Below the pieces are notes generated by a model. It did no database searches. It saw nothing but the letters and a program-made list of their open reading frames with translations, and was not told where the DNA came from. DNA of 64,000 nucleotides from Omnitrophica bacterium GWA2_41_15 (GTDB lineage: Bacteria > Omnitrophota > Gorgyraeia > Gygaellales > UBA12090). Of this stretch, positions 1,745 to 47,041 are shown piece by piece (the stretch's first letter is position 1; each line of letters begins with the position of its first letter). A program made the translations under genes and the position numbers. The stretch is from the NCBI GenBank assembly GCA_919902675.1, contig CAKKRH010000016.1, positions 8,789 to 72,788 of the forward strand, written 5' to 3'.

Positions 1745-1749
1745 TAAAC

Positions 1750-1805
1750 TATCAGCTATCAGCAATCAGCAATCAGCTGAAAGCCGAAAGCTGAAAGCCG
1801 AAAGC
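1750..1805 (+). repeat. Heptamer-phased intercistronic hairpin: 4x (T/A)ATCAGC then 4x YGAAAGC
   Basis: It reads tatcagc tatcagc aatcagc aatcagc | tgaaagc cgaaagc tgaaagc cgaaagc. It fills the whole gap between the stop (1742-1747) and ATG 1808. Confidence 0.85.
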
Positions 1806-1807
1806 TG

Positions 1808-3895
1808 ATGAACATTCTGCAAATAGTACCTGAACTTAATTACGGCGGGGTGGAGACCGGGACGGTGGATTTGGCTAAGTATTTAATCAATGCCCGGCAT
1901 AAGGCGGTAGTGGTTTCCGCCGGCGGAGAGTTGGTAGACAGGCTTAAGGCCTTAGGCGCTGTTCATTATTCGCTGGCGGTTAATAAAAAATCCCTATTTT
2001 CAATTGTCCGGGCTTGTTCAGAGCTGGTAAAGATCATCCGAAAAGAAGATATCCAGGTAGTCCATGCCCGTTCCCGGGTTCCAGCCTGGAGCGCTTATTT
2101 TGCCGCCAAATTAACTAATGTTCCTTTTGTTACCACTTGTCACGGTTATTATTCCCGGCATATTTTAAGCCGGGTGATGGGCTGGGGAAAATTGGTAATT
2201 GTGCCCAGCCAGATAATCGGAAGGCGCATGATTGACGATTTCGCGGTATCCGCAGAGAGGATAAGGTTGATACCGCGCGGTGTGGATGCCGAAAATTTTA
2301 CCTTTATTTTGCCTGAGGAAAAAAGCCGTACTGAGTTTGTGATCGCCATTATCGCCAGGATTACTCCGATAAAAGGGCATCTTTGTTTTATCAAAGCAAT
2401 CCAGCGGGTCTACCGTAGTATTCCTAATATTAAGGTCTGGATTATCGGCACAGCCCCCAAATCCAAGTCTCATTATAAAGAGGACCTGGAGATTCTAGTC
2501 AAGCGTTTGGGATTGGCGCATATTGTAGAATTTTTAGGCAAGAGAAACGACATTTCTCAGCTTTTTTCTAAAATCAATCTTTTGGTTATGGCCTCAACTA
2601 CCCACGAGGCCTTTGGTCGGGTGATTGTCGAGGCTCAAGTATCCGGGGTTCCGGTAGTGGCTACACGGGTAGGTGGAGTGGTGGATATTATTGAGCCCGG
2701 CGTGGATGGGCTCCTCTGTGTTCCTAAAGATTCTGAAGGTATGGCTGAGGCAATTATCAGGATTTTGAGGGATAATGAACTAAGCTCTCTATTAGCCAAA
2801 AACGGCCGGCTTAAGGCGCTTTCAAAATTTAACTTGGAGAAAATGGCTAAAGACACCCTGGAGGTTTATCAGGAGGCAGTTGGTTTTAAAAGAATTCTGA
2901 TAATAAAACTGAGCGCTTTGGGTGATCTTATACTCTCGATTCCGGCCTTAAAGGCGCTACGCAAGAAATATCCTCCTTCTCATCAGATAACCCTGCTCAC
3001 CGGCCAGGCGATAGCCGCGGTAGTAAGTAATTGTCCTTATTTGGATGAGGTAATGGTGTATGATTTTAAAGAGAACGATAAGGGCATCTTTAAGCTTTTT
3101 CGCCTGGGTAAGGAATTAAGAAGAAAGAATTTTGATATGGTTGTTGACCTGCAGAATAACCGCAAGAGCCATATCCTTTGCGCTCTTTCTTTGGCTTCGC
3201 TAAGATGCGGATATCAAAACAAGAAGTTTAGCTTTTTGCTTAATCGTAAGGTCATAGAAGATAAATTTATCCTGGGGCCGCTGGAACATCAGTTCCGGAT
3301 TTTAAATCTGCTGGATATTGAACTCAAGGACAGAAAGATTGAACTTTGGCCTTCAAAAGATGATGAGAGATATATCGATGATTTTTTAAATTCAGAATGG
3401 TTAAGCGGGAGTCAGATTTTGGTGGGGGTTCACCTTAGTTCTTCCCAGAAGTGGCTTACCAAGCGCTGGCCGCTGGAATATATCGCTCATCTGGCCGAAG
3501 AGCTGGCTTTAAGGGATATTCGCGTGGTTATAACCGGAGAAAGAATGCCCCGAGAAGAATTGAGAGTTTTTAACGAGTTGACCAAGAAGTCCAGGCCGAT
3601 TATGGCCTGCGGAAAAACCACCATAAACCAGCTTGCCTGCCTGATTAAACGCTGTAATGTATTTATTTCAGGTGATACCGCGCCGTTACATATTGCCTCC
3701 GGCGTAGGCACGCCGGTAATCGCGCTATTCGGCCCGACTGACCCCCGCCGGCATATCTCCTCGGAAAAAGACGCGTTGATTTTAAAAAAGGAGTTAGAGT
3801 GCCAGCCCTGCTATAAGCCAAAATGCGTATCCATAGAGTGTATGAAGAAGATAAGCGTGGATGAGGTTAAAGAGGCGGTGTTAAAACTGTTATAA
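1808..3895 (+). CDS. Two-domain glycosyltransferase: N-terminal GT4 (WaaG-like) fused to C-terminal GT9 (heptosyltransferase-like)
   Basis: 695-aa ORF. The N-half has the GT4 E-x7-E block EAFGRVIVEAQVSGVPVVATRVGG. The C-half has ILIIKLSALGDLILSIPALKALR and ISGDTAPLHIASGVGTPVIALFGPT, the same signature seen in the GT9 ORFs at 5899 and 6911. Confidence 0.8.
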   Translation: MNILQIVPELNYGGVETGTVDLAKYLINARHKAVVVSAGGELVDRLKALGAVHYSLAVNKKSLFSIVRACSELVKIIRKEDIQVVHARSRVPAWSAYFAAKLTNVPFVTTCHGYYSRHILSRVMGWGKLVIVPSQIIGRRMIDDFAVSAERIRLIPRGVDAENFTFILPEEKSRTEFVIAIIARITPIKGHLCFIKAIQRVYRSIPNIKVWIIGTAPKSKSHYKEDLEILVKRLGLAHIVEFLGKRNDISQLFSKINLLVMASTTHEAFGRVIVEAQVSGVPVVATRVGGVVDIIEPGVDGLLCVPKDSEGMAEAIIRILRDNELSSLLAKNGRLKALSKFNLEKMAKDTLEVYQEAVGFKRILIIKLSALGDLILSIPALKALRKKYPPSHQITLLTGQAIAAVVSNCPYLDEVMVYDFKENDKGIFKLFRLGKELRRKNFDMVVDLQNNRKSHILCALSLASLRCGYQNKKFSFLLNRKVIEDKFILGPLEHQFRILNLLDIELKDRKIELWPSKDDERYIDDFLNSEWLSGSQILVGVHLSSSQKWLTKRWPLEYIAHLAEELALRDIRVVITGERMPREELRVFNELTKKSRPIMACGKTTINQLACLIKRCNVFISGDTAPLHIASGVGTPVIALFGPTDPRRHISSEKDALILKKELECQPCYKPKCVSIECMKKISVDEVKEAVLKLL

Positions 3896-3900
3896 TAAGC

Positions 3901-3949
3901 TATCAGCTTTCAGCTGTCAGCAGTCAGCCGAAAGCCGAAAGCCGAAAGC
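3901..3949 (+). repeat. Heptamer-phased intercistronic hairpin: 4x NNTCAGC then 3x CGAAAGC
   Basis: tatcagc tttcagc tgtcagc agtcagc | cgaaagc x3. It is preceded by TAATAAGC and followed by cg + ATG 3952. Confidence 0.85.
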
Positions 3950-3951
3950 CG

Positions 3952-5046
3952 ATGAACATTTTAATTCTGGCTAATCATTTCAATCCCGGAGGAATATCCA
4001 GCTATATCTTGAATTTGGCTCAAGGATTAACTGTCAGAGGGCATAAGGTATATATCGGCTCCGCGGGCGGTGAGTGGGTGGAAAGGCTTACGAAAAATAA
4101 TATAGAACATATCAATCTGCCTTTAAAGACCAAATCCATAATCAGCCCGAAGCTTTTGTTTTCTTATTTTATCCTGAAGAAAGCCCTGAAGGATAAACGC
4201 GTCGACATAATCCACAGCCAGACCCGGGTTACCAGCGTATTGGCTTATTGGTTATCCGCGAAGACCGCCATACCTTTTGTTTCTACCGCCCACGGTTTTT
4301 TCAAGCCGCGCTGGGAGAGATTGAGGTTTCCTTGCTGGGGGGATTTGGTTATTGCCATCTCCCATGCGGTTAAAGAGCATTTAATCCGGGATTTTAAAGT
4401 TGCCCCGGATAAAATAAGATTGGTGCGTAACGGAATAAAGGTCGCCAGTCTCCAGTCGCCAGTCTCCAGAAGAAAAGAGATAAAAGAAGAATTCGGCTTG
4501 AAAGATGGGCCGGTGGTGGGGATTATCGCCCGGCTTTCTGAGGTCAAAGGGCATAAATACCTGATCCAGGCTATGAGTGAGGTTGCCGCGGAAATCCCAG
4601 AGGTTCAGCTTTTGAGTGTGGGTGACGGCGCGATAAAAAAAGAATTAGAGGATCTCGCGCTCTCTCTGGGTATTTTAGAGCGCGCGCGTTTTATTCCGGC
4701 GGTCGCCGACACCCGGGAGGCGCTTTCGGTAATGGATGTTTTTGTGATGCCCTCTTTGCAGGAAGGATTAGGTTTGTCCATAATGGAGGCGATGCTTTCC
4801 GGCCTGGCGGTAGCTGCTTCCTCGGTCGGAGGCATACCCTCTTTGATCAAAGACGGGCAAACCGGGATCCTGGTTAGGCCTAAAGACGCCTCCGCCTTAG
4901 CTAAGGCGATAATCAGCCTGTTAAAGGATAATAAAAAGGCATTCGAACTAGGCGAAAATGCCCGGGAATTGATTGTAAAAGAATTTTCTTTAGAGAGAAT
5001 GATTCATGAAACAGAAGAGGTTTACAGACTATGCCTAAGGCGATAA
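3952..5046 (+). CDS. Glycosyltransferase family 4
   Basis: 364 aa. It starts MNILILANHFNPGGISSY and has the E-x7-E block EGLGLSIMEAMLSGLAVAASSVGG. Confidence 0.8.
   Translation: MNILILANHFNPGGISSYILNLAQGLTVRGHKVYIGSAGGEWVERLTKNNIEHINLPLKTKSIISPKLLFSYFILKKALKDKRVDIIHSQTRVTSVLAYWLSAKTAIPFVSTAHGFFKPRWERLRFPCWGDLVIAISHAVKEHLIRDFKVAPDKIRLVRNGIKVASLQSPVSRRKEIKEEFGLKDGPVVGIIARLSEVKGHKYLIQAMSEVAAEIPEVQLLSVGDGAIKKELEDLALSLGILERARFIPAVADTREALSVMDVFVMPSLQEGLGLSIMEAMLSGLAVAASSVGGIPSLIKDGQTGILVRPKDASALAKAIISLLKDNKKAFELGENARELIVKEFSLERMIHETEEVYRLCLRR
4441..4468 (+). repeat. In-CDS tandem 14-mer x2 (= 4 heptamers gtcgcca gtctcca)
   Basis: gtcgccagtctcca gtcgccagtctcca inside the GT4 gene, encoding VASLQSPVS. 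Confidence 0.85.
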
Positions 5047-5834
5047 AATTCGGGTTACTATTTCTGCTTTTTTCTTTTTTCAGCTTTTTAATCTGGATAG
5101 GCACACTGCTTAAGCATTATACCGTGCCTATCTTGATGTATCACTATGTCAATAACGAAGAACCGTTAAAAAGCAGGCTGGGCGTGAGTCCGGAGAGCTT
5201 TGAAAGGCAGATGCGTTTCTTAAGAGAACGTAAATACAATATTGTTTCCCTGGAGGAGTTAACCGATCTGATAAAGAATAAGAAAAAGATACCTCCTATG
5301 ACCGTGGCCGTTACCTTTGACGACGGCTATCTGGATAATTATACTCACGCCTACCCGGTGCTAAAGAAATATAATATCCCGGCGGCTATTTTCGTGGTGA
5401 TTAACCGGATAGGTAAGCATTTAGTAAATGATGATTATATGTCCTGGAGCCAGATTAGAGAGATCTCTGAAAGCGGCCTGATTACTATCGGAAGCCATAG
5501 TATGAGTCATCCTAACTTAAGCGAGATTAGTTTGGAAGAACAGCTGAAAGAGGAAATCCTTGAGTCAAAAAAAATATTGGAAAAGGAATTGAATCAAGAG
5601 GTTAAATTCTTCAGTTATCCTTTTGGCGGCCGGAGCCCTGAGGCATGCCGGATTGTATCTTTATCCGGCTATAAGGCAGCCGTGGGAACCAATTTTCCTA
5701 AAGGCTCTCCTGGCGACGACATCTATGCCTTAAAAAGACTGCGTATTTCGGAAAACTGCCGGAACCTGTTTATTTTCTGGGTGGAAGTATCCGGCTTTTA
5801 TACACATATCAAAGAGCAGAGGGATGACTACTAA
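5031..5834 (+). CDS. Polysaccharide deacetylase (CE4 / NodB homology domain), N-terminal TM anchor
   Basis: NodB motifs VAVTFDDGY and IGSHSMSHPNL, plus a hydrophobic N-terminus. It overlaps the preceding gene by 16 nt. Confidence 0.8.
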   Translation: MPKAIKFGLLFLLFSFFSFLIWIGTLLKHYTVPILMYHYVNNEEPLKSRLGVSPESFERQMRFLRERKYNIVSLEELTDLIKNKKKIPPMTVAVTFDDGYLDNYTHAYPVLKKYNIPAAIFVVINRIGKHLVNDDYMSWSQIREISESGLITIGSHSMSHPNLSEISLEEQLKEEILESKKILEKELNQEVKFFSYPFGGRSPEACRIVSLSGYKAAVGTNFPKGSPGDDIYALKRLRISENCRNLFIFWVEVSGFYTHIKEQRDDY

Positions 5835-5840
5835 ATAAGC

Positions 5841-5896
5841 TTTCAGCTCTCAGCTTTTAGCAATCAGCCGAAAGCCGAAAGCCGAAAGCCGAAAGC
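5841..5896 (+). repeat. Heptamer-phased intercistronic hairpin: 4x NNT(C/T)AGC then 4x CGAAAGC
   Basis: tttcagc tctcagc ttttagc aatcagc | cgaaagc x4. It is preceded by TAAATAAGC and followed by aa + ATG 5899. Confidence 0.85.
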
Positions 5897-10307: not shown

Positions 10308-10425
10308 ACCAGAAATCCTAATCCCTAAACAAACCCAAAATCTAAAACATAAAAGTCAAAACTTTTGTTTGGCGCATTTGGATTTTCGTTTTTGAGTTTG
10401 TTTAGAGTTTAGTGTTTAGAGTTTT
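10303..10425 (+). repeat. CTAAACAAA-core long imperfect hairpin element (copy A, after hldA)
   Basis: The left arm is A/C-rich heptamers (taaacca gaaatcc taatccc taaacaa acccaaa…). The right arm is T/G-rich (…gagtttgtttagagtttagtgtttagag). Confidence 0.75.
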
Positions 10426-12955: not shown

Positions 12956-12987
12956 TCCATAGTCGATAGTTGATGGTCCATAGATTA
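12953..12987 (+). repeat. Direct array of 5 heptamers spanning the kdsD stop and the kdsC start region
   Basis: tagtcca tagtcga tagttga tggtcca tagatta. The first TAG is the kdsD stop codon. Confidence 0.8.
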
Positions 12988-13515
12988 AGAATGCGGGCAA
13001 ATATAGCAAATAAAATAAAAAAGGTTAAACTTTTGATTCTGGATGTGGATGGGGTGCTTACTGACGGCAGGATAATTTATGATTCTCAGGGCAGGGATTC
13101 CAAGTTTTTTGATGTTCATGACGGCTTGGGGGTGTATCTTTTAAAAAGGGTGGGGATTAAAACCATCCTGATTACCGCCAAAGGTTCAAAAACAATTAAA
13201 CCCAGAGCCAAAGATATGCGGGTTGAGGAGTTTTACGAAGACATTTTTCCTAAAACAAAAGTTTTGACTAAAATTCTTAAAAAACACCGGATAAAAACTG
13301 GGAATATCTGTTTTATCGGTGATGATTTGGTGGATTTAAGCATAATGAAGGCGGTGGGTTTTCCGGTGGCCGTGGCCAACGCCAGTAAGGACATTAAGGC
13401 CGCCTCAAGTTATATTACCCAAAAAAAAGGCGGCCGGGGCGCGGTCCGGGAGACGGCTGAGTTGATTTTAAAGACTCAAGGAAAATGGCAGGAAGCAATT
13501 AGCATATATCAATAG
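12970..13515 (+). CDS. kdsC: Kdo8P phosphatase (HAD superfamily)
   Basis: HAD motif I LILDVDGVLTDGRIIY and FIGDDLVDL. The true start may be ATG 12991 (MRANIANK), because the first codons lie in a heptamer repeat array. Confidence 0.8.
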   Translation: MMVHRLRMRANIANKIKKVKLLILDVDGVLTDGRIIYDSQGRDSKFFDVHDGLGVYLLKRVGIKTILITAKGSKTIKPRAKDMRVEEFYEDIFPKTKVLTKILKKHRIKTGNICFIGDDLVDLSIMKAVGFPVAVANASKDIKAASSYITQKKGGRGAVRETAELILKTQGKWQEAISIYQ

Positions 13516-13530
13516 AGCCGGCAAGCCAAA

Positions 13531-13669
13531 GCCATAAGCCAGAGGGCGATGGTTTGCGTTCCATATAAGCAAAGCCATAAGCCAGAGGGCGATGGTTTGC
13601 ATTCCATATAAGCAAAGCCATAAGCCAGAGGGCGATGGTTTGCATTCCATATAAGCAAAGCCATAAGCC
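13531..13669 (+). repeat. Tandem repeat, 43-bp unit x3.2, each unit self-complementary
   Basis: Units start at 13531, 13574, 13617 and 13660 (partial). The unit is gccataagccagagggcgatggtttgc(g/a)ttccatataagcaaa. The internal dyad is gcaaagccat…atggtttgc. Confidence 0.9.
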
Positions 13670-13697
13670 TTGACAAGGCTTTGAGAGTTGTTATTAT
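13670..13697 (+). promoter_or_regulatory. Sigma-70-type promoter for the lptC/A-like gene
   Basis: TTGACA (13670-13675), a 16-nt spacer, then TATTAT (13692-13697). It directly abuts the last 43-bp repeat unit. Confidence 0.5.
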
Positions 13698-13722
13698 ATT
13701 ATTTCCGAAAAAACCAAAAACT

Positions 13723-14658
13723 ATGAATAAGACCGTTTTAGCGCTTGTTTTTTTATTTAGTTTGAGTTTTACTCTGGACGCGGCCCAGAAAGGCGCGCCT
13801 AAGAAAAACCAGACGCAATCCGAAAGCTCCGACCAAAGGATAGATGATTTCTCTCTTTCCGGAGGCAACCAGAGGGGAAAGAAGGCCTGGGAGGTTAAGG
13901 GAAAGTCCGCGGATATCTTTACCGATGTGGTCAAGCTTACCAGCGTAAACGCCAATGTTTACGGCGAGGAAGAGGATGTGAACTTGGTCGCGGATAACGG
14001 CGCCTACGATAAGGCCAGCGGCAAGATGCACCTGGAGGATAATGTGGTAATTACTACCACCGGCGGCGGGAAGATGACTACCGACTATTTGGATTGGGAT
14101 AAGGAGTCGCAAAGGGTGAGTACCGAGGCCATGGTGAATATTGAAAAGCAGAATATTAAGGCAACGGCCAAGGGTTTGGAGGGTGAGCCTAATTTAAAAA
14201 GGATTTCTTTAAAAGATAATGTTAAGGTTGAAATCAGGGAGCAGGCCGAGGCGCTCATCGCGCCGCTCCCGCCTCTCGCTCCTCAGGCGGCTTCGGCGGG
14301 TGAATCCAAAATTCCCGATCCTCTTTTTTCCGCCAAGGAACCGACGATTATTACCTGCTCCGGGCCCTTAGAAATAGATTATGAAAAAGAAATAGCGATT
14401 TTCCATAATAATGTTATGGTGGACCAAAAAGACCAAGGGATTATGTATGCCGACAGGATGGACGCCTATTTTGATTTTAAGAACAAAAAGATTTTACGGA
14501 TAATTTCTAAAGGCAACGTCAAAATTGTCAAGGATGAAAATACCTCTTACAGTGATGAGGCGCTGTATTCCGCCCAAGACGGTAAATTAACCTTAAGCGG
14601 AAATCCGCGCTTAGTTATTAATTCCAAGGATAAAATACTCAACGCGCCGTCAGAGTAG
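13723..14658 (+). CDS. LptC-like plus LptA/OstA-like two-domain LPS transport protein with N-terminal signal/anchor
   Basis: MNKTVLALVFLFSLSFTLDAA is a signal or anchor. Two OstA-type beta-jellyroll-like halves (…GKMHLEDNVVITTTGGGKMTTDYLDWD… and …AIFHNNVMVDQKDQGIMYADRMDAYFD…GNVKIV…LSGNPRLV) are joined by a Pro/Ala linker (APLPPLAPQAASA). Its position between kdsC and lptB matches the E. coli lptC-lptA slot. Confidence 0.55.
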   Translation: MNKTVLALVFLFSLSFTLDAAQKGAPKKNQTQSESSDQRIDDFSLSGGNQRGKKAWEVKGKSADIFTDVVKLTSVNANVYGEEEDVNLVADNGAYDKASGKMHLEDNVVITTTGGGKMTTDYLDWDKESQRVSTEAMVNIEKQNIKATAKGLEGEPNLKRISLKDNVKVEIREQAEALIAPLPPLAPQAASAGESKIPDPLFSAKEPTIITCSGPLEIDYEKEIAIFHNNVMVDQKDQGIMYADRMDAYFDFKNKKILRIISKGNVKIVKDENTSYSDEALYSAQDGKLTLSGNPRLVINSKDKILNAPSE

Positions 14659-14855
14659 TTTTTATAGGTTAAGGGCGCGTTGAAGGGGGCGCGGGGGAGA
14701 TCGTCCCCCACGCTTAGGGGGGCGCTGCTTAGCGAACGTAGTGAGCGCGATGAGGGGGGCTTGCCCCACATAGCGCCTGCCTGCTAAAGCAGGCAGGGAA
14801 GCGCGGAGTTAACTTTCGCTTTTCCCAAATAAGAATTAAGTTAACGGAGCACTTG

Positions 14856-16563: not shown

Positions 16564-16570
16564 GTGAAGC

Positions 16571-16708
16571 TAAACCCTAAATCCGAAACCCTAAACTCTA
16601 AACAAACTAAAAATCATAAACTCGAAACTCAAAATAAATGTTTAAGATTTGGAGAATTTGGATTTGGGTAGGATTTGTTTAGGATTTAGAAGTTAGTGCT
16701 TAGGGTTT
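16571..16708 (+). repeat. CTAAACAAA-core long hairpin element (copy B, after tig)
   Basis: The outer 9 bp are perfect (aaaccctaa / ttagggttt). The core ctaaacaaa pairs with tttgtttag. The left arm has 3 G in ~70 nt and the right arm has 1 C. Confidence 0.8.
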
Positions 16709-21576: not shown

Positions 21577-23388
21577 ATGAGCTTGCGGCTAAAGGTTGAA
21601 TCTAAATTTCAAATTTTAGGAATTTTATCTCTGTCCTCTGTCCTCTGTTCTCTGTTTTCTGGTTATTGTTTCGCTGAAAAGATAACCATTCTTTACACCG
21701 GAGGAACCCATGCCGCGCTCTATCATTGTGATTGTCCTCACCAGCCGGACGGCGGAGTGGCCAGGAGAATGACTAAGGTCAAAGAGCTGCGCAAGGAAAA
21801 TCCTGATACTATTCTGGTGGATGCCGGAGGGTTTTTTGCCGCAGGAGAGCTGGATGAGCACAGTCAAGATGCTCAACTGGATAAAGCGCGCACCGAAATT
21901 AACCTGAAGGCCCTTGAGCTTATGGGCTATGATGCCGTGGCTGTCGGTGATGATGAATTTAACTTTGGCCGGGATTATTTATCCGCTCAAGCCAAAAAAT
22001 CAAGGATTGCCTTTTTATCCTGCAATCTGAAGATGGATGGCCTTAAGCCTTATCTGATTAAGAAAGTGTCCGGCCTTAACGTCGCTCTTATCGGCTTAAC
22101 TAATCCTCAAGTTAATGCCAAGTCGGCTGGATTGGAGGCAGGAGACCCCTATCAGGCTTTAGCCAGAACTATTTCAGAGGTCAAGAGAAATAAGGCCGAT
22201 GTGGTGGTAGTTTTAAGTTATCTGGGGGAAGAAGAAGATACTAAGCTGATTACCCAGATTGACGGCGTTGATGCTATTATTTGCGCCAAGCCTCAGGATA
22301 CTCAAGAGCCTTTCAGTAAAATCGGCAAAGGCCTCCTGGTCCGGGCCTCCCGGCAGGGCAGGCGTTTAGGAAAATTGGATATTGAATTAGAGAATAAGAA
22401 GATAAAAGAGACCAGGGTGGAGGATATCCGCTTATCTAAAGAAATAGCCGATTGGCCCCAGCTAAAAAAGCAAGTGCCGGCCTGTTTTGAGGATTCCGCC
22501 TGCCGCAAGGAAGGCTTAGTCGGTAAATGCCTTAATCCCGGAAAGATAAGTTCTTCTTGCGCTTATGAGAAACCCAAACAGATTTCTCTTTTGGTTATTC
22601 AGCCTAAGGATATAAAAGTCCTTCACCAGGAAAAATTTTTAAGCTTCTTAAGAAAGCTTTTTCCGGGGCTACAGGTTAATTTTATTGATTCTGATTCCGC
22701 ACCCGGTAAATCCTGGATAGTAAAAACTCAGGCAAAACTTTTACCAGTGTATCTGATTGCCAAGGACGTGGATACGCAAGGCGAATTCAAGGATATCAAG
22801 GATTTTGCCGAATTAAAAGATGATTATTATTGTTTAAGCCCGCGGCTTTCCGGCGGTTTGATATTCATTGGCCGGCCCAGGATAGCTAATACATTAGATG
22901 TCTTTATGGGAACTAAGGGTAATAAAGGCTCAGAGGTTTTATCCTTGTTAAGAGACCTCCGGGCCGGGCATAAAGAATTGGGTATTAAACTGCATTATTT
23001 GGCAATTGAGACTCAAAATGGTTTCGCCGCGCCCGCAGGCATAGCGGAATTAGAAGAGGATATGAGGCAGGTTTGTATCGCTAAATATCAGCCGGATAAG
23101 CTCTGGGATTACGCTCTCTGCCGTTTTAAAAACCAGGATAGTTCCTGGTGGGAGATTTGCGCCGAGCAGTTTGGGATTAATCCGGCAGCGATCAAGAAAT
23201 GCGCTCTTTCTCAAGAAGGGCTGGATTTATTAAGAGAAAACACCGCCTTGAACAAAGAGTTGGAAATGTCCATCGGGCCGGTGTTTTTGGTGAATAATAA
23301 TGAGGTATACGCGGCTAAAAATTTCAGCCGGGTTGAGGAGTTGGAAAAACTTTTAGGCTTAGCACCCGCGAAAAAAGATAAGGATTAA
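21577..23388 (+). CDS. Secreted protein: degenerate metallophosphoesterase/5'-nucleotidase-like N-half, Cys-rich thioredoxin/DsbA-like C-half
   Basis: ILVDAGGFF and MGYDAVAVGDDEFNFG resemble calcineurin-type blocks but lack the GNHE His. The C-terminus (…CALSQEGLDLLRENTALNKELEMSIGPVFLVNN) resembles a DsbA-family tail. Weak call. Confidence 0.35.
   Translation: MSLRLKVESKFQILGILSLSSVLCSLFSGYCFAEKITILYTGGTHAALYHCDCPHQPDGGVARRMTKVKELRKENPDTILVDAGGFFAAGELDEHSQDAQLDKARTEINLKALELMGYDAVAVGDDEFNFGRDYLSAQAKKSRIAFLSCNLKMDGLKPYLIKKVSGLNVALIGLTNPQVNAKSAGLEAGDPYQALARTISEVKRNKADVVVVLSYLGEEEDTKLITQIDGVDAIICAKPQDTQEPFSKIGKGLLVRASRQGRRLGKLDIELENKKIKETRVEDIRLSKEIADWPQLKKQVPACFEDSACRKEGLVGKCLNPGKISSSCAYEKPKQISLLVIQPKDIKVLHQEKFLSFLRKLFPGLQVNFIDSDSAPGKSWIVKTQAKLLPVYLIAKDVDTQGEFKDIKDFAELKDDYYCLSPRLSGGLIFIGRPRIANTLDVFMGTKGNKGSEVLSLLRDLRAGHKELGIKLHYLAIETQNGFAAPAGIAELEEDMRQVCIAKYQPDKLWDYALCRFKNQDSSWWEICAEQFGINPAAIKKCALSQEGLDLLRENTALNKELEMSIGPVFLVNNNEVYAAKNFSRVEELEKLLGLAPAKKDKD
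21629..21656 (+). repeat. In-CDS array of 4 heptamers (ctctgtc x2, ctctgtt x2)
   Basis: It lies in the signal-peptide coding part of the 21577 ORF (…LSLSSVLCSLFS…). Confidence 0.85.
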
Positions 23389-24719: not shown

Positions 24720-24729
24720 TGTAAAAACC

Positions 24730-26211
<1,482 letters not shown>

Positions 26212-29997: not shown

Positions 29998-30003
29998 ATA
30001 AGC

Positions 30004-30059
30004 CTTCAGCTGTCAGCCTTCAGCTTTCAGCTGAGAGCTGATAACTGAAAGCCGACAGC
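30004..30059 (+). repeat. Heptamer-phased intercistronic hairpin (diverged copy)
   Basis: cttcagc tgtcagc cttcagc tttcagc | tgagagc tgataac tgaaagc cgacagc. It is preceded by TAAATAAGC and followed by tgataa + ATG 30066. Confidence 0.8.
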
Positions 30060-30065
30060 TGATAA

Positions 30066-30750: not shown

Positions 30751-30868
30751 TAAACCCTAAACCCTAAATCCGAAACCATAAACAAACTCAAATGTTTAAA
30801 AACCCAAAACAAAAAAACATAAAATTCTTGTATTGTGGGTTTATGACTTTGGATTTGTTTAGAATTTT
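30751..30868 (+). repeat. CTAAACAAA-core long hairpin element (copy D, after ABM-like ORF)
   Basis: taaaccc taaaccc taaatcc gaaacca taaacaa actcaaatgt … ggatttgtttagaatttt. Confidence 0.75.
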
Positions 30869-37830: not shown

Positions 37831-37839
37831 AATAATGAT

Positions 37840-37971
37840 AAACTCTAAACCCAAAACCCTAAATTCTAAACAAACCCAAATGTTAAAACCCAAAATCAAA
37901 AACGGCTGTTTAGTGTTTTGGGTTTCTGGTTTTGGATTTGTTTAGGATTTAGGATTTAGGATTTAGGATTT
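37840..37971 (+). repeat. CTAAACAAA-core long hairpin element (copy E, between amt and glnB), right arm ends in 4 perfect AGGATTT
   Basis: …taaattc taaacaa acccaaatgt … ggatttgttt aggattt x4 (37944-37971). It abuts the glnB SD. Confidence 0.8.
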
Positions 37972-38456: not shown

Positions 38457-40649
38457 ATGAGCATCAGGGAAGAAGTTTTATTCAGAATCAAGAGTATTGA
38501 TTTGGAGAGGAAGTCTCAACCTAAGAGTGTTTCCAGTTATTTTGGCGAGAACACCTTTAATATCTCCACAATGAAAGAGCATATTTCTGAAAGCACTTTT
38601 GACGCTTTCAAGCGCTGGATGTCCGAAGGCCTGACCATTACTATTGATCAGGCTAATGAGATTGCCGAGTGCATGAAGAGATGGGCTATTTCTAAGGGGG
38701 CTACTTATTATACCCACTGGTTCCAGCCGATGACTGGCTTAACCGCGGAGAAACACGATAGTTTTATTTCCATAACCGCACCTGGAAAGGTCATGGAGAA
38801 GTTTTCCGGAAGCAAGCTTATCCAGGGTGAGCCCGACGCCAGTTCTTTTCCCTCCGGAGGCATACGCGCTACTTTTGAGGCCCGCGGTTATACCGCCTGG
38901 GATCCTTCCAGCCCGGCCTTTATAATTGAAAGTACGTTAGGTAAGACTCTGTGCATTCCGAGCATTTTTATTTCTTATCACGGCGAGGCTCTGGATAAGA
39001 AGCTTCCCCTTTTGCGCTCTGATGAGGCTGTGAGCAAGGCGGCTATAGGCCTTTTGCGGCTTTTCGGGCACAAAGATGTCAAGAAAGTGCTTTCTACCTG
39101 CGGCCCGGAACAGGAGTATTTCTTGATAGATAAAAATTATTATAACTTAAGGCAGGACCTCTTATTGACCGGGCGCACCTTGGTGGGCGCGAGCTCACCT
39201 AAAGGGCAACAGCTTGAGGACCAGTATTTCGGGACAATCAAGGAGCGAGTGGTTAATTTTATGTTTGAGGTCGCGGAGGAGGCTTATAAGCTGGGGATTC
39301 CGGTGATGACCCGGCATAATGAGGTGGCTCCGCACCAGTATGAGTTCGCGCCGGTGTTTGAAGAATCCAATATTGCCGCCGACCATAATCAACTGCTGAT
39401 GGAATTGATGAAGAAAGTCGCCCTGCGGCATAATTTGGTCTGCCTTTTACACGAGAAGCCGTTTGCCGGGATAAACGGAAGCGGCAAACATCTGAATTGG
39501 TCTTTGGCGGATGATAAGGGTAATAATCTGCTTAATCCCGGGGAAACCCCTGAGGATAATTTGCAGTTTTTGGCAGTATTGGCCGCGGTGCTCAGGGCGG
39601 TTTATAATCACTCGGATCTCCTGCGCTCAAGCGTGGCTATTGCCGGGAATGAACACCGCTTGGGAGCCAATGAAGCGCCTCCGGCGATTATGAGCGTCTT
39701 CCTGGGAGATCAGTTAACTTCTATCCTGAATATGATTGAGAAGGGCGCGAAGAACAAGGTTTCCAAGCGCGACATTATTGATTTAGGTGTTACCAAACTT
39801 CCTAAATTCAATAAGGATTCCACTGACCGTAACCGTACCTCGCCTTTTGCCTTTACCGGGAATAAGTTTGAGTTCCGGGCGGTAGGCTCTTCCCAGAACA
39901 TCTCTACGCCGATAGCGGTGATTAATACTATTATTGCCGAGAGCTTGGATTATGTGGCGGATAAGATTAAAAAGGCCTCCGCGGGCAAGGATTTCAACAC
40001 GGCAGTCTTAAAGGTTATCGCCGAGTTGGTTAAGGAGAGCAAGGACATCCGTTTTGAGGGAAATAATTATTCCGAGGATTGGGTTAAAGAGGCCAAAAGG
40101 AGAGGTCTGCCTAATGTGGCCTCTACCGTGGATGCCTTAAAGGCCCTGGAAAAAAAGGAAAACATCGCCTTATTTGAGAAGTATAAGGTTTTCACTAAGG
40201 AAGAGCTTCTGGCCCGTCACAAAATCTGGGTTGATTTATATAACCTTACCCTGGAGATTGAGGCCAATACCCTCAATGAGATGGTTAATTCTTGCGTCGT
40301 TCCTTCAGGATGTGAATATGAGCGGCTTTTGGCGGATAATCTTTCCAGGTTGGTCAGCCTCAAGAAAGAGGTTAAGTTGAAACTGGAAGAGGCAGTCTTA
40401 GATGACCAGAAAGAGCATTTAAGCGAAGTGGCCCAAAAGATTTATTATGTGCGGCGCAACTCCAAAGAGCTGGTTAAGCTCTTAGAAAAAGCCGCTCAAC
40501 TCCACCATGAGGAAAAAGCAGAGCTTTATTTTAAAGAGCTAAAGCCTCTTATGGAGCATATCAGGAGGCATGTGGATGCCCTGGAGCGGGTTGTCTCCGA
40601 TGAGCATTGGGATCTACCCAAGTATCGCGAGATGCTTTTTATAAAATAA
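38457..40649 (+). CDS. glnN: Glutamine synthetase type III
   Basis: The 730-aa length and layout are typical of GSIII. Catalytic region: HNEVAPHQYEFAP…INGSGKHLNWSL. Confidence 0.85.
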   Translation: MSIREEVLFRIKSIDLERKSQPKSVSSYFGENTFNISTMKEHISESTFDAFKRWMSEGLTITIDQANEIAECMKRWAISKGATYYTHWFQPMTGLTAEKHDSFISITAPGKVMEKFSGSKLIQGEPDASSFPSGGIRATFEARGYTAWDPSSPAFIIESTLGKTLCIPSIFISYHGEALDKKLPLLRSDEAVSKAAIGLLRLFGHKDVKKVLSTCGPEQEYFLIDKNYYNLRQDLLLTGRTLVGASSPKGQQLEDQYFGTIKERVVNFMFEVAEEAYKLGIPVMTRHNEVAPHQYEFAPVFEESNIAADHNQLLMELMKKVALRHNLVCLLHEKPFAGINGSGKHLNWSLADDKGNNLLNPGETPEDNLQFLAVLAAVLRAVYNHSDLLRSSVAIAGNEHRLGANEAPPAIMSVFLGDQLTSILNMIEKGAKNKVSKRDIIDLGVTKLPKFNKDSTDRNRTSPFAFTGNKFEFRAVGSSQNISTPIAVINTIIAESLDYVADKIKKASAGKDFNTAVLKVIAELVKESKDIRFEGNNYSEDWVKEAKRRGLPNVASTVDALKALEKKENIALFEKYKVFTKEELLARHKIWVDLYNLTLEIEANTLNEMVNSCVVPSGCEYERLLADNLSRLVSLKKEVKLKLEEAVLDDQKEHLSEVAQKIYYVRRNSKELVKLLEKAAQLHHEEKAELYFKELKPLMEHIRRHVDALERVVSDEHWDLPKYREMLFIK

Positions 40650-40809: not shown

Positions 40810-43800
40810 ATGAAGAGACGACAAGATTTGGAAAAATACGGTTTGTATGATTCCCGTTTTGAGCATGATTCCTGCGGGGTGGGGTTTGTCTGCGATGTTA
40901 AGGGGAGAAAATCCAATTCCATCGTTCGCCAGGGACTAAAGGTGCTTAAGCGGCTTTCTCATCGCGGGGCAACCGGGGCGGATCCCAAGACCGGGGACGG
41001 GGCTGGAATTTTGATCCAAACCCCGCATCAATTCTTCCTCAAGATTGCCCATCAGGCCAGGATCCGGCTTCCTGACTATGGGGAATACGGCTCTGGGCTG
41101 GTTTTTCTGCCGGCTAATCCTAAGGAACGCAAGTTTTGTAAGGATGCCTTAGCTAAGATCATTAAGGATGAGGGGCAGTTTTTGCTTGGCTTTAGGGCCG
41201 TGCCGGTGGATAATTCGGATATCGGGGTGAGCGCTCAAAAGACCCAGCCGGTGATTGAGCAGGTGTTCATAAGAAGGGTCGCCAAGCCGCCAAGTCGCCA
41301 AGTCGCCAAGCAAGACGATTTAGATTTTGAGCGCAGGCTTTATGTTATCCGCAAACAGGCCGAAAATATCATCCGCGCCTCTAAATTAAAACAAAAATCC
41401 TCTTTTTATATCCCCAATCTTTCCAGCCGCACCTTTTCCTATAAAGGGCTGTTGATGCCAGAGCAGGTGGATAGTTTCTTCCCGGACCTGCTGGATGAGG
41501 ATGTTCAGAGCGCGATCTGTCTGGTTCATTCCCGCTATTCCACCAATACCTTTCCCACCTGGGACCTGGCCCAGCCTTTTCGCTTCCTGGCCCATAACGG
41601 CGAGATAAACACCTTGCGGGGGAATATCAGCTGGATGTCTGCCCGGGAAGGCCTCTTAAAAAGCGGGCTCTTCGGCAAAGACATAAATAAGCTCAAGCCG
41701 GTGATTGTCCCGGGGGGCAGTGACTCCGCGGCTATTGATAACGCCTTTGAGCTTTTGGTATTGGCCGGCAGGCCCATTGAGCAGGCGATGATGATGCTTA
41801 TTCCGGGTGCCTGGGAACAGCATAAATTAATGGATGAAAAGCTCAAGGATTTTTATAAATACCACGCCTGTTTTATGGAGCCCTGGGACGGCCCGGCGGC
41901 TATTGCCTTTAGCGACGGGATAAGTATCGGGGCAGTCCTGGACAGAAACGGCCTGCGCCCGGCGCGCTATATTGTAACTAAAGATGATCTGGCGGTGATG
42001 GCCTCGGAGGTGGGGGTGCTGGATGAGATTAAGCCTTCAGACATCGCGCTCTCCGGCAGGCTTGAGCCGGGGAAGATGTTTTTTATTGATACCCTTCGGC
42101 AGAGGATCATCCAGGATGATGAGATTAAGGAAAAGGCCGCCAGCCGAAAGCCTTACGGTGACTGGCTTAAAGATAACCTTCTGGAGTTTGATAAGCTCCC
42201 CGCCGCAAGGCTGAAAGCTGAAAGCAGAAAGCTGAAAGCTGGTGAAGATGTTTTGCTTCTCCTAAATGCCTTTGGCTACACCCGTGAAGACTTGAAGCTC
42301 ATCCTAAAACCTATGGCTGAAGAGGGCAAAGAGCCTATCGGCTCAATGGGCAATGATGTGCCTCACGCGGTGCTCTCCAGGTATCCCCAGATGCTTTATA
42401 CATATTTCAAACAGCTCTTTGCCCAGGTAACCAACCCGGCCATTGACCCTATAAGGGAAGAATTGGTGATGAGCCTGTTTAGCTTTGTGGGCGCTCAGAA
42501 AAATATCCTGGAGGAAACCCCCGGACACGCGCGTAAGCTTTTAGTCAAAGAACCCATCCTTAGTAACGAGGATTTGGCCGGGATCCGAGGCCTCAACCCC
42601 GCCCTTTCTTACTATGAAGATACGCCTGGAAGAGGAAAGGGCGGGGTCAAGGAAAAAGGCTTTAAGAGTAAAGGCGTTTCCATACTTTTTAATGTTGAGG
42701 ACGAAAAGGATTTTCTTAAAACCTTGAATAAGGTCTGTCAGGAGGCAGTCGCGGCTATCCGGCAGGGATACAGTTTTATTATCCTAAGCGATCAGGGGGT
42801 AAATAAAAAGCGCGCGGCCTTGCCGGCCCTTTTGGCTGTGGGGGCAGTGCATCATTACTTAGTCAAAAAGGCCCTGCGCACCCAGATTGGGATCATTCTG
42901 GAAACTGCTGAACCACGGGAGGTGCATCATTTTGCCTTGTTGTTTGGCTATGGAGCGGATTGCGTTAATCCTTACCTGGCCTATCAGTCTCTGGCCTATT
43001 TAATCTCCGAGGGGCAGTTGAATTTGGATTATGCCAAGGCCTTGAATAATTACCGCCACGCCCTGGATACCGGGATACTCAAGATACTTTCCAAGATGGG
43101 TATTTCTACACTTCAGAGTTATCGCGGGGCCCAGATATTCGAGGCCTTGGGGGTGGGGCTTGAGGTTATTGATAAATGCTTTTGCGGGACTGTTTCGCGC
43201 GTTGGGGGCGCGGGTTTTAGCGAGATTTGCGCTGAGTCTTTGCTAAGGCATAAACAGGCCTTTGGCGAAGGGTCTCTCAATGCCCCTTACCTGTTAAGCG
43301 GAGGCGTTTACCAGTGGAAACGCGACGGTGAATACCACCTTTGGAATCCGGATACTATTGCCAGTCTCCAGGATGCCACCCGTCTTGGCGATTACAAGAA
43401 ATACAGGGAATTCGCCAATCTTATTAATGACCAGTCTAAAAATCCGGCGACCTTGAGAAGCCTGCTCAAATTCAAGTCTGTCAGGCCTATTCCGATTGAG
43501 AAGGTGGAGACGGCAGAAAATATCTTTAAGCGCCTGGCTACCGGGGCAATGAGCTTTGGTTCAATTTCAAGAGGGGCGCATGAGAACCTGGCCATCGCCA
43601 TGAACCGCTTAGGCGGCCGTTCCAATACCGGAGAAGGCGGGGAGGATCCTGCCCGGTTTAAGCCGCTTGCTAACGGAGATTCCAAAAGAAGCGCTATTAA
43701 GCAGGTAGCCTCCGGCCGTTTCGGGGTAACTACCAATTATTTGGTCAATGCCGATGAAATCCAGATTAAGATTGCTCAGGGGGCTAAGCCCGGTGAAGGG

Positions 43801-45429: not shown

Positions 45430-45433
45430 AAAG

Positions 45434-45570
45434 AAACACTAAACACTAAATTCTAAATCCTAAACAAATCCAAAACACAAAACCATAAACCTAAAACATA
45501 TTTTTGTTTTGAGTTTCTAACTTTGGGTTTTGAGCTTGTTTAGAGTTTAAGATTTAGAGTTTAGGGTTTT
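45434..45570 (+). repeat. CTAAACAAA-core long hairpin element (copy F, between gltB and gltD)
   Basis: …taaacac taaattc taaatcc taaacaa atccaaa … gagcttgtttagagtttaagatttagagtttagggtttt. It ends 8 nt before the gltD ATG. Confidence 0.8.
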
Positions 45571-45577
45571 ATATGAT

Positions 45578-47041
45578 ATGGCAGTAGACATTAAAGGTTT
45601 CTTAAAGGTAAAGAGAAAATATCCTGAATACCGGCCGGTCTGCGAGCGGGTCAAGGATTATCAGCCGGTTTTTGTCTTGAGGGCGAATCCCCAGAGCCAG
45701 GAACAGGCAGTGCGCTGTATGGATTGCGGCACCCCTTTTTGCCACTCGGGATGTCCGATTGGTAATTATATCCCGGAGTGGAATGAGATGATTGCCGCGG
45801 GAAAGTGGCAGAAGGCCTTTGAACTTCTTAATGCCACCAATAATATGCCGGAGGTTACCGGCCGTCTTTGTCCGGCGCCCTGTGAATACGCCTGCGTCTT
45901 GGGGATTAACGATGACCCGGTAACCATCCGGGAAAATGAATTAGCCATAATTGAGAATGGATTCAAAGAAGGTTTTATTAAGGCCCGGCCGCCTAAGAAA
46001 CGCACTGGTAAGAAAGTGGCGGTAATCGGTTCCGGGCCTGCCGGCCTGTCTTGCGCCGCCCAGTTGAACCAGGCCGGGCATAAAGTAACGGTCTTTGAGA
46101 AATACGACAAGCCAGGAGGGATACTGCGTTACGGTATACCGGACTTTAAGCTAGAGAAGTCTGTGCTTGAGCGTAGGATAGGGATTTGGAAAAAAGAAGG
46201 GATAGTTTTTAAGTGTGGGATAGATGTGGGCGAGGATTATTCGGCTAGAAAATTATTAAAAGATTTTGACGTCGTCTGCCTGGCCGGAGGTTCAAGGGTG
46301 TCCAGGGATTTAAAGATTGAAGGCCGGGAATTGTCCGGGATACACTTTGCCATGGATTACCTGATCCAGTCTAACCGCAGTCTGAGCGAAGAATTGAAAA
46401 ATTCCAATGCGGGTTTGGAGGAAGGTCAGCTTAACGCCAAAGGCAAAAGAGTGCTGGTTATCGGCGGAGGGGATACTGGTGCTGACTGCGTGGGCACTGC
46501 CAATAGACAGGGGGCTTGCTGCGTGGTCCAGATAGAGGTGATGCCTAAACCGTCGGAATGTCGCACTCAGGATATGCCCTGGCCAAAGTATCCGATGATC
46601 TTCAAGACCTCTTCCAGCCATGAAGAAGGCGGAGAGCGTCAGTGGGCAGTGCTGACCAAAAGATTTATTGGTGAGTCTGGAATGGTTAAAAAGGTCTCCT
46701 GCGTGAGAGCTGATTTTTCCCAAAAAGACGATAAAGGCTGTCCCTTGATGAGAGAGATTTCCGGGAGTGAATTTGAGATTGAGGCGGATTTAATCCTTTT
46801 GGCAGTAGGCTTCCTGCATCCGGAGCATAAGAGCCTGCTCAAAGATTTGAAAATAGAGCTTGATCTCCGCGGCAATGTCAAGACTAATGATAATTATATG
46901 ACTTCCCGAAAGGGTGTATTCTCGGCCGGAGATATGCGCCGGGGGCAATCATTGATAGTCTGGGCTATATCCGAAGGCCGCCGCTGTGCCCAGGCCATTG
47001 ATATATATCTCTGCGGTAAAAGCAGTCTTCCTTCCATTTAG
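45578..47041 (+). CDS. gltD: Glutamate synthase small subunit (NAD(P)H)
   Basis: RCMDCGTPFCH, LCPAPCEYAC and VAVIGSGPAGLSCA. Confidence 0.9.
   Translation: MAVDIKGFLKVKRKYPEYRPVCERVKDYQPVFVLRANPQSQEQAVRCMDCGTPFCHSGCPIGNYIPEWNEMIAAGKWQKAFELLNATNNMPEVTGRLCPAPCEYACVLGINDDPVTIRENELAIIENGFKEGFIKARPPKKRTGKKVAVIGSGPAGLSCAAQLNQAGHKVTVFEKYDKPGGILRYGIPDFKLEKSVLERRIGIWKKEGIVFKCGIDVGEDYSARKLLKDFDVVCLAGGSRVSRDLKIEGRELSGIHFAMDYLIQSNRSLSEELKNSNAGLEEGQLNAKGKRVLVIGGGDTGADCVGTANRQGACCVVQIEVMPKPSECRTQDMPWPKYPMIFKTSSSHEEGGERQWAVLTKRFIGESGMVKKVSCVRADFSQKDDKGCPLMREISGSEFEIEADLILLAVGFLHPEHKSLLKDLKIELDLRGNVKTNDNYMTSRKGVFSAGDMRRGQSLIVWAISEGRRCAQAIDIYLCGKSSLPSI

Follow-up and report, generated by a model that had tools for sequence, protein, structure and literature searches.

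Within the 64,000-nucleotide (64-kb) stretch of contig CAKKRH010000016.1 analyzed here (hereafter, the window), which is assigned to Omnitrophica bacterium GWA2_41_15 and whose nearest proteins bear the source names Candidatus Omnitrophota or Omnitrophica, the gene for the large subunit of glutamate synthase (gltB) lies between gltD (45578-47041) and a gene for a type III glutamine synthetase (38457-40649), and carries within its reading frame a short tandem array of a 7-nucleotide (7-nt) unit. The encoded protein shows the Pfam domains GATase_2 (residues 22-452; E-value 8.5e-175), Glu_syn_central (486-782; 2.9e-113), Glu_synthase (845-1211; 9.3e-147), and GXGXG (1292-1477; 2.6e-81), and matches solved GltB chains (PDB 7mfm, 1llw, and 1ea0) at E-values of 1e-46 to 1e-64. 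The coordinates of this array and of the other features discussed are collected in Table 1.

Tandem Repeats Finder (TRF) describes the array as a period-7 repeat of consensus GCTGAAA with 92% matches and a score of 57. The letters of 42191-42243 are gATAAGCtccccgccgcaaggc TGAAAGC TGAAAGC AGAAAGC TGAAAGC tgg, and the gltB open reading frame (ORF) reads open through them as ...FDKLPAARLKAESRKLKAGEDVLLLLNAFGYTREDL..., with the 32 nt of the array, in frame, occupying codons 468-477 and coding L468-A477 (LKAESRKLKA). Sequence, TRF, and translation thus confirmed the letters and the in-frame GAAAGC heptamer array that an earlier note, made from the sequence alone, had quoted for this position. A 7-nt unit is read in all three frames in turn and hence yields a peptide with a 7-residue period, provided that the units are stop-free or that compensating substitutions are present; in a perfect (TGAAAGC)n tract, one frame meets TGA every 21 nt. 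The TGA triplets of the array (at 42212, 42219, and 42233) are all out of the gltB frame, and its third unit is the lone AGAAAGC, where an unchanged unit would read AGC-TGA in frame. That is, the sole variant base lies 1416 nt (3 x 472) downstream of 40810, where it makes the codon AGA (R473) and removes the would-be in-frame TGA. A related gene (L007) avoids a stop likewise, with GCA-CGA where GCA-TGA would fall in frame.

The unit of the gltB array recurs elsewhere in the window. At no more than one mismatch, GAAAGCNGAAAGC showed 16 matches in the window vs. 0.68 +/- 0.78 in shuffled sequences (0/100 shuffles reached 16), and the copies outside gltB are the right arms of intergenic elements (1775-1808, 3926-3952, 5866-5896, and 30029-30062), each located between a stop codon and the next ATG, with (TCAGCNN)~4 as its left arm and (GAAAGCN)~4 as its right. 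As RNA, these elements form hairpins that are more stable than shuffles (z -3.9 to -5.7, with 0/200 shuffles as good). The gltB array has the unit and strand of the four intergenic right arms and a similar length (~4.5 copies); the family unit therefore recurs at 5 loci in 64 kb, well above chance. Given the excess of matches, and since the other copies are the right arms of hairpin-forming intergenic elements, we take the observation to be real. Only the short length of the tract speaks for a chance resemblance or an assembly artefact, an explanation to which we give almost no credence considering these counts, the TRF score, the gltB ORF that stays open across the array, and the independent assemblies of relatives that show the same phenomenon (below). 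We also observed that no Shine-Dalgarno-like GGAGG is visible upstream of the starts at 40810, 45578, 1808, 3952, and 5899, and that a heptamer right arm comes within 1-3 nt of the ATG in three of these starts. As a separate observation, the 10-mer GCCGAAAGCC occurs once in conserved gltB coding sequence (42143-42152, coding ASRKPY), 67 nt upstream of the array; elsewhere it is found only inside intergenic arrays (6 copies), with ~0.06 such chance matches expected.

The array-coded residues lie inside the 33-residue gap that separates the amidotransferase and central-domain Pfam models. In alignments to the solved structures, Bacillus subtilis GltA shows a 6-residue gap exactly over the first array units, and the GltB proteins of Azospirillum and Synechocystis have linkers of similar length and unrelated sequence. 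The window linker is as long as that of Azospirillum GltB and exceeds only that of B. subtilis (by 6 residues), and hence a clean insertion relative to the solved structures was rejected. In an AlphaFold2 (AF2) model of GltB residues 1-700 (52 homologues, mean predicted local distance difference test [pLDDT] of 79.8, predicted template modeling score [pTM] of 0.82), the segments with pLDDT <50 include residues 469-477 and 161-168, which makes the two repeat-coded peptides of GltB (for the second, see below) the least confidently modelled internal loops of the N-terminal half; a short helix is modelled at 470-473. The array is therefore translated in a variable linker, as had been noted, given its location in the spacer between Pfam models, the variable sequence and length of this spacer among orthologues, and the low pLDDT.

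To place the linker in context, 160 related loci were fetched from species-representative genomes and metagenomes, and the linker, measured from the conserved Y..W to FGY, was compared in 145 gltB genes. Its sequence is unconserved and its length is 37 amino acids (aa) in 65 of the 145 genes (the mode) vs. 42 aa in the window; most orthologue linkers have 36-38 aa and no repeat, while the array-bearing ones all have 40-63 aa. Alignment with orthologues, suggested earlier as a check for an insertion of about 10 codons, thus revealed a linker that is longer, by 5 aa over the mode, but does not look like a clean insertion, and no homologous peptide encoded by non-repetitive DNA was found in unrelated orthologues, the linker sequences being unrelated. 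At this linker position, heptamer arrays built of other units are found in several of the closest relatives (Table 1). The nearest protein (P0003; 85% identity) has a 7-residue periodic peptide, TSHEPRATSHD, which implies, from the peptide only, an (ACGAGCC)n array in its gene.

These arrays are confined to few places in the gene. Across 593 kb of gltB coding DNA (the 145 genes), 17 period-7 runs were found, 11 in the linker, which represents 2.9% of the sequence, and 6 near residues 156-167; after duplicate genomes were removed, all 13 distinct period-7 arrays fell in the linker or in the loop around residue 160. Periods 4, 5, 6, 8, 9, and 10 together gave 4 runs in the same DNA. The coding arrays are mostly purine-rich on the sense strand (9/14 at >=0.72 purine) and their peptides are rich in K, R, E, D, T, and S. 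It could be argued from this hydrophilic bias, from the array-bearing linkers exceeding the modal length, and from the short helix in the AF2 model that the charged (LKAESRK)n peptide itself, with its 7-residue period, came under selection, because a linker that is longer, more flexible, or helical would tune contacts between domains or between the alpha and beta subunits; repeat DNA would then have been no more than the raw material. Yet a simple tolerance filter predicts the hydrophilic bias equally, the peptides of close relatives are wholly different (LKAESRK, SRQPTAD, RRMTHDA, and GRRKTEG), and 36-38 aa without a repeat suffice in most orthologues; we therefore consider selection for the peptide unlikely.

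The CAGC-type left arm of the intergenic elements is not present at the gltB array, which consists of the right-arm array only. This bears on the second proposal of the earlier note, namely that an RNA-level signal is embedded in the gltB mRNA. In such a case (or its equivalent at the level of single-stranded DNA), (GAAAGCU)4 would bind a factor shared with the intergenic arrays, or act as a translational pause site between domains, and GltB synthesis would be tied to the genes that carry the intergenic elements. With the partner arm missing, the fold of a 101-nt segment around the array is no more stable than those of shuffles (z -1.3; 21/200 as good), and the z of -2.2 reached by a 150-nt segment comes chiefly from pairings outside the array; a search of the whole window against Rfam gave no match at the gathering threshold. 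Folding and Rfam led us to reject a hairpin or RNA signal in gltB. Moreover, relatives carry quite different units, or none, at the linker, i.e., the permissiveness of the site recurs and not the sequence, and the arrays are confined to the two least constrained loops. The proposal does draw on the unit, strand, and ~4.5-copy length shared with the intergenic right arms, which abut start codons, on the peak at 4 copies among the period-7 arrays of the lineage, unlike plain slippage, and on the CSP, S1, or CsrA-type proteins proposed to bind heptamer tracts in other bacteria (PMC4679880), but overall we regard it as quite improbable.

The sequence had also been described as the tag and right arm of the intergenic element without its CAGC arm. 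The right arm and the missing CAGC arm stand; the ATAAGC tag as a part of an inserted element was rejected. We treat the gltB ATAAGC as native because it belongs to the codons of a conserved D-K-L, is found at the same offset in 8 orthologue loci, none of which has the GAAAGC array (L096 among them has an unrelated CAAATCG array), and is a hexamer with 33 copies on the + strand of the window. DK[LIVF] is present in 42 of the 145 linkers, and the ATAAGC of the intergenic elements includes the TAA of the upstream gene. ATAAGCC also begins the 42-nt unit of a palindromic repeat of the L002 group of relatives (hairpin A, below), and a role in microhomology is possible.

Sister genomes show how such arrays turn over. 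The linker flanks of L002, L082, and L083 are 99.5-100% identical, yet their linkers hold a 42-nt unit (PEGDGLASNSQSHK) once, twice, and three times, respectively. In L003, which is 93-98% identical to these three, AAAAGCC(GACAGCC)4 stands in register with (AAAAGCC)2 of L002, a difference of exactly 21 nt, i.e., three heptamers. Relatives were thus seen to differ in length by 21 nt or by 42-nt units, both multiples of 21 nt. Where a contig covers the whole of an array-bearing gltB ORF, that ORF is intact. The window array is kept open by three-unit quantization plus one stop-removing substitution. A heptamer simple sequence repeat (SSR) within an ORF, together with copy-number change at the same linker in sister species, could also denote a contingency locus, in which a gain or loss of one unit frameshifts gltB and reversibly switches glutamate synthase on and off. 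We find this very improbable, since the observed differences are all in frame and the complete array-bearing genes intact, the tract is short (4.6 units) and interrupted, and gltB is a housekeeping gene of nitrogen assimilation whereas the usual genes of this kind control determinants of the bacterial-host interaction (PMC11868660).

Compared to the L002/L003 group, the window shows ~92% nucleotide identity upstream of the linker (41550-42195) and ~82% downstream (42250-42880); a recombination breakpoint may lie at the linker. Degenerate NAAAGCC units of the L002 group align with the window array. The simplest reading of this alignment would be that an NAAAGCY-type array was already present in the common ancestor and was re-homogenized differently in each line, although independent gains in each line are possible. 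Since the linker does not look like a clean insertion and the aligned position of a sister lineage is occupied by a degenerate NAAAGCC array, the window array is probably old and re-homogenized in place.

Small palindromes occupy the same sites. Hairpin A (GGTTTGGCTTCCnnnAGCCAAAGCC) is found in frame in the gltB linker of L002, L003, L082, and L083 and in the residue-160 loop of L076, L120, and L122, and also, with the same peptide (PEGxGLASxSQS), in an unrelated 281-aa ORF (L017); in L029, the spacer that follows gltD holds it as two tandem copies 42 nt apart. The 42-nt unit of hairpin A is the one that varies between one and three copies among L002, L082, and L083 (above). When the peptide of hairpin A was searched against a protein database, the sole match had 47 aa and known carriers were missed, the query being too short to inform. 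Two gltB linkers (L003 and L096) contain palindrome B (CCTGCCTGCCGGCAGGCAGG), which is perfect over 20 nt; at six loci it lies within or close to the residue-160 loop. Palindrome B is read in different frames across the GltB loops of relatives and also occurs between genes (after the gltB stop in L086), with a B-like copy at 14774-14797 of the window. Further, (TCAGCNN)4 arrays, i.e., the left-arm family of the window elements, are present in the residue-160 loop of L120 and L150. Immediately upstream of the window array, 42196-42212 aligns to palindrome B with 14/16 matches plus one gap (local score 10, top 0.8% of window tiles), which is no more than suggestive of a degenerate remnant of the 20-nt palindrome CCTGCCTGCCGGCA(A)GGCAGG, intact at the matching place in L003 and L096.

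In relatives, the loop near residue 160 forms the second hot spot for repeats in gltB. It measures 11 aa in the majority of orthologues, is 18 aa long in the window, and reaches 42 aa in others. In the window, it holds (GTCGCCAA)x4, which codes VAKPPSRQVAK. Most period-7 TRF rows of the window are intergenic or just touch gene ends; the arrays within ORFs are those at 4441, 5067 (2.1 copies), 11191, 21628, and 42210. The other in-ORF heptamer arrays examined also lie in permissive segments. For instance, (GTCGCCA/GTCTCCA)x4.1 at 4441-4469 is in frame in a glycosyltransferase (GT4) ORF (3952-5046), codes KVASLQSPVSRR, and sits in what looks like an interdomain segment, while (TCTCTGT)x4.9 at 21628-21661 falls in the N-terminal, signal-peptide-like hydrophobic stretch (ILSLSSVLCSLFSG) of ORF 21577-23388. 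The unit at 4441-4469 is almost equal to the period-8 unit of gltB.

Table 1. Coordinates of the repeat arrays, palindromes, and associated features. Positions are those of the window unless a related locus (L-number) is named.
Feature	Location	Strand	Basis or remark
gltB, glutamate synthase large subunit, intact, 1539 codons	40810..45429	+	ORF, Pfam, structure matches
Heptamer array (GCTGAAA/TGAAAGC) x4.6	42210..42241	+	TRF, sequence, codon split
Sole variant base of array, A for T	42226	+	read in gltB frame from 40810
Interdomain spacer, residues 453-485 (33 residues)	42166..42264	+	gap between GATase_2 and Glu_syn_central models
ATAAGC	42192..42197	+	native codons GAT-AAG-CTC of conserved D-K-L (..LDKLP..)
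CTCCCCGCC-GCAAGGC (LPAAR)	42196..42212	+	local alignment to palindrome B
(GTCGCCAA)x4, period 8, second in-frame non-triplet array of gltB	41280..41310	+	TRF, AF2
Intergenic element, (CTATCAG)4.3 left arm + (AGCCGAA/AGCTGAA)4.4 right arm, hairpin	1749..1808	+	TRF; fold z -5.35
Intergenic element, right arm (AGCCGAA)3.9	3896..3952	+	TRF; fold z -3.87
Intergenic element, right arm (AGCCGAA)4.4	5834..5896	+	TRF; fold z -4.18
Intergenic element, both arms degenerate	29999..30062	+	TRF; fold z -5.72
TAAACCC/GTTTAGR family copies	10298-10424, 16570-16687, 24725-24877, 30751-30824, 37839-37971, 45434-45569		
Linker array (AGCCGAC)4.4	L003		codes SRQPTADSRQPTAD
Linker array (GGACGAA), about 5 copies	L004 (= L084 = L085)		
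Linker array (CGAAGGA)	L086		
Linker array (GACGCAY)5.4	L007 (= L088)		codes RRMTHDARRMTHD
Linker array (GACGGAA/GGCAGAA)6.4	L001		
Linker array (CAAATCG)3	L096		
Linker array (ACCTAAA)2.4	L155		
Hairpin A	L002 10490-10570; L082 4491-4679; L083 4683-4913; L120 5524-5613; L017 4252-4276; L029 17666-17732		
Palindrome B	L003 10512-10532; L004 9551-9571; L096 2573-2593		
(GAAAGCC)n, 15 units	L162 5030-5145		spacer between annotated genes of unrelated bacterium
(GAAAGCC)n, 12 units	L163 5047-5127		spacer between annotated genes of unrelated bacterium

Period 7 stands out in the genomic background as well. In a sample of 1.96 Mb (the fetched loci plus the window; TRF arrays with >=3 copies), 115 arrays had period 7, compared to 27 with period 8, 16 with period 6, 13 with period 9, and 12 with period 5; the copy number of the period-7 arrays has a secondary mode at 4, and 18 of the 29 period-7 TRF rows of the window have 4.x copies. 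A second, more abundant intergenic family consists of inverted (TAAACCC/TAAACAC)n and (GTTTAGR)n arrays, 30-100 nt apart, whose unit is a permutation of the plant-type telomere repeat CCCTAAA and which is also found in L002/L083 and L150. The gltB-gltD spacer of the window (45430-45577) holds a ~150-nt inverted heptamer-array element, the size being 150-200 nt across the window, L150 (9733-9930), and L086; in L003 (13727-13735), L007 (10658-10665), and L006, where the element is not present, gltD starts right at the gltB stop. Such intergenic elements therefore come or go within <10% nucleotide divergence. No arrays of the same unit were seen in the 10-kb flanks of L003, L004, and L007. As for the gltB unit itself, a protein database search with the peptide of (GAAAGCY)n, i.e., (LKAESRK/PKAESRK)n, gave 21 matches, all of them short hypothetical ORFs of 40-89 aa, and the array-coded peptide was not found in another real protein. 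The two of these ORFs that were examined lie over long (GAAAGCC)n arrays outside annotated genes (L162 and L163, the latter in a gene neighborhood that looks enterobacterial), which makes the GAAAGCC-type unit a recurrent bacterial SSR; public annotation calls these arrays as short hypothetical ORFs. Another tandem repeat of the window, a near-perfect 43-nt unit x3.3 (99% matches) at 13527-13669, lies in the spacer between ORFs 12970-13515 and 13681-14658.

Dispersed heptameric SSR families include the cyanobacterial short tandemly repeated repetitive (STRR) heptamers. An excess of heptanucleotide SSRs in prokaryotes has been described, with families such as GGGAATC in Xanthomonas and GGGGAYT in Nostoc that prefer four units, lie between aligned ORFs, and occasionally form inverted pairs (PMC4692102, which also cites heptanucleotides of Calothrix), and in the TAACTGA family of Beggiatoaceae and cyanobacteria some copies lie in ORFs, at the protein periphery (PMC4679880). 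The window resembles these families in that one 7-nt unit recurs in tandem, about four times over, at numerous places in a genome, most of which are spacers of co-oriented ORFs near a start or stop codon, with an excess of period 7, occasional inverted pairs able to form stem-loops, and rare in-ORF copies, which in those families lie at the protein periphery. It differs in the phylum (Omnitrophota, by nearest-match names), in the units (GAAAGCN/TCAGCNN and TAAACCC/GTTTAGR), in the regular pairing of intergenic copies into hairpins, and in a coding copy that sits mid-protein in an essential enzyme. The recurrent arrays at the same two loops of relatives are not described in PMC4692102 or PMC4679880, and no report of heptamer repeats in Omnitrophota was found in the literature searched.

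The closest precedent for translated repeats is the Rickettsia palindromic elements (RPEs), repeat elements found in frame in protein-coding metabolic genes and predicted to insert in a way compatible with the three-dimensional conformation and function of the protein (PMC10969869). The gltB repeats are likewise otherwise non-coding DNA that is in frame in a metabolic gene and translated. RPEs, on the other hand, are about 150 bp long, resemble the miniature transposable elements with inverted repeats known as MITEs, and each have a conserved peptide, whereas the gltB array is a 32-nt, one-armed tandem array without an inverted repeat; neither a palindromic body nor terminal inverted repeats were found at it (no left arm, no significant fold), and the protein database search did not find its peptide in unrelated proteins. 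Hairpin A is closer to RPEs, with the same peptide in two GltB loops and an unrelated ORF and with further copies in intergenic DNA, which by analogy amounts to RPE-like behavior in Omnitrophota. Triplet-compatible SSRs expand low-complexity repeats in variable protein loops. The gltB array is similar to such expansions as slippage-derived filler in unconstrained surface segments and differs from them in its 7-nt unit, which is translated in each of the three frames by turns. A slippage-prone, non-triplet SSR in a reading frame is also seen at phase-variable contingency loci such as those of Haemophilus and Neisseria (PMC11868660, PMC2651432), but the gltB array belongs to a housekeeping gene, is a short, interrupted tract, and shows only in-frame length differences among relatives. 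The gltB array shares with RPEs its place in frame at a permissive site of an otherwise conserved ORF, but it lacks their inverted repeat and shared peptide. Its head-to-tail copies of a 7-nt unit, as revealed by TRF, the recurrence of this unit at several loci, and the mostly intergenic location of such arrays are defining features of a dispersed heptamer SSR family, and not of an RPE or MITE.

Hence, we favor, with fairly good confidence, the hypothesis that the gltB array is a tolerated, translated copy of the dispersed heptanucleotide-repeat family of this genome, residing in a permissive interdomain linker of GltB. Under this hypothesis, an ancestor would have acquired repeat DNA in the linker, either through slippage on a local seed or from the intergenic repeat families through illegitimate recombination or conversion. 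Replication slippage would then have turned the array over, leading to concerted evolution of the unit. Selection would act as a filter, letting pass only those variants that are in frame, stop-free, and coding hydrophilic residues; the array would have no function of its own and serve as linker filler. The repeated settling of repeat DNA in the same two GltB loops appears, from the sequences compared, to be a clade-wide habit. Consistent with this hypothesis, the variable, low-confidence spacer and the two loops of relatives, in which heptamer arrays and palindromes known from intergenic DNA as well recur, uphold one part of what the earlier note had proposed, i.e., that coding DNA is open to the element, or to the process generating it, and that a loop can tolerate the result. 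The tolerance stands, while the tag does not.

Several points weigh against this hypothesis. Insertion from an intergenic element and growth in situ are indistinguishable here, and the designation of a dispersed family rests on 5 loci in 64 kb, 3 of which are in one operon. The gltB array has the same ~4.5-copy length as the intergenic arms, which could reflect a length-constrained function or a generator other than slippage. The lone family 10-mer in conserved gltB coding DNA (above) also counts against it, and the low AF2 confidence may come partly from alignment variability and not from true disorder. Finally, no same-species contig was found among the species-representative genomes or metagenome contigs (the best relatives share 85% and 82% aa identity) to show copy-number polymorphism of the array.

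Alternatively, the arrays and mini-palindromes of this Omnitrophota clade might be made or moved by an active, lineage-specific process aimed at gene and domain junctions. Candidates would be a small, non-autonomous mobile element whose arms are built of heptamers and a repeat-adding or repair activity whose product is ~4 units long. We see only an outside chance of such a process. If true, the GltB linker and the residue-160 loop would be recurrent landing sites where selfish repeats write peptide segments into an essential enzyme, this would be an RPE-like phenomenon in bacteria other than Rickettsia, and within the mRNA the arrays might still serve in RNA or protein binding.

In conclusion, the favored hypothesis, i.e., a tolerated copy of the repeat family in a permissive linker, reveals neither a new regulatory element nor a new mechanism. 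It is important to note, nonetheless, that it would represent a clean natural case of non-triplet repeat DNA turned into protein sequence, in which the frame stays open through one compensating substitution. Across the clade, intergenic repeat families would have their sinks in two loops of an enzyme essential to nitrogen assimilation. This would show which GltB segments are freely variable, which may be of use in engineering, and offer a concrete case in which to study the spread of dispersed repeats and the way in which permissive protein sites are found.

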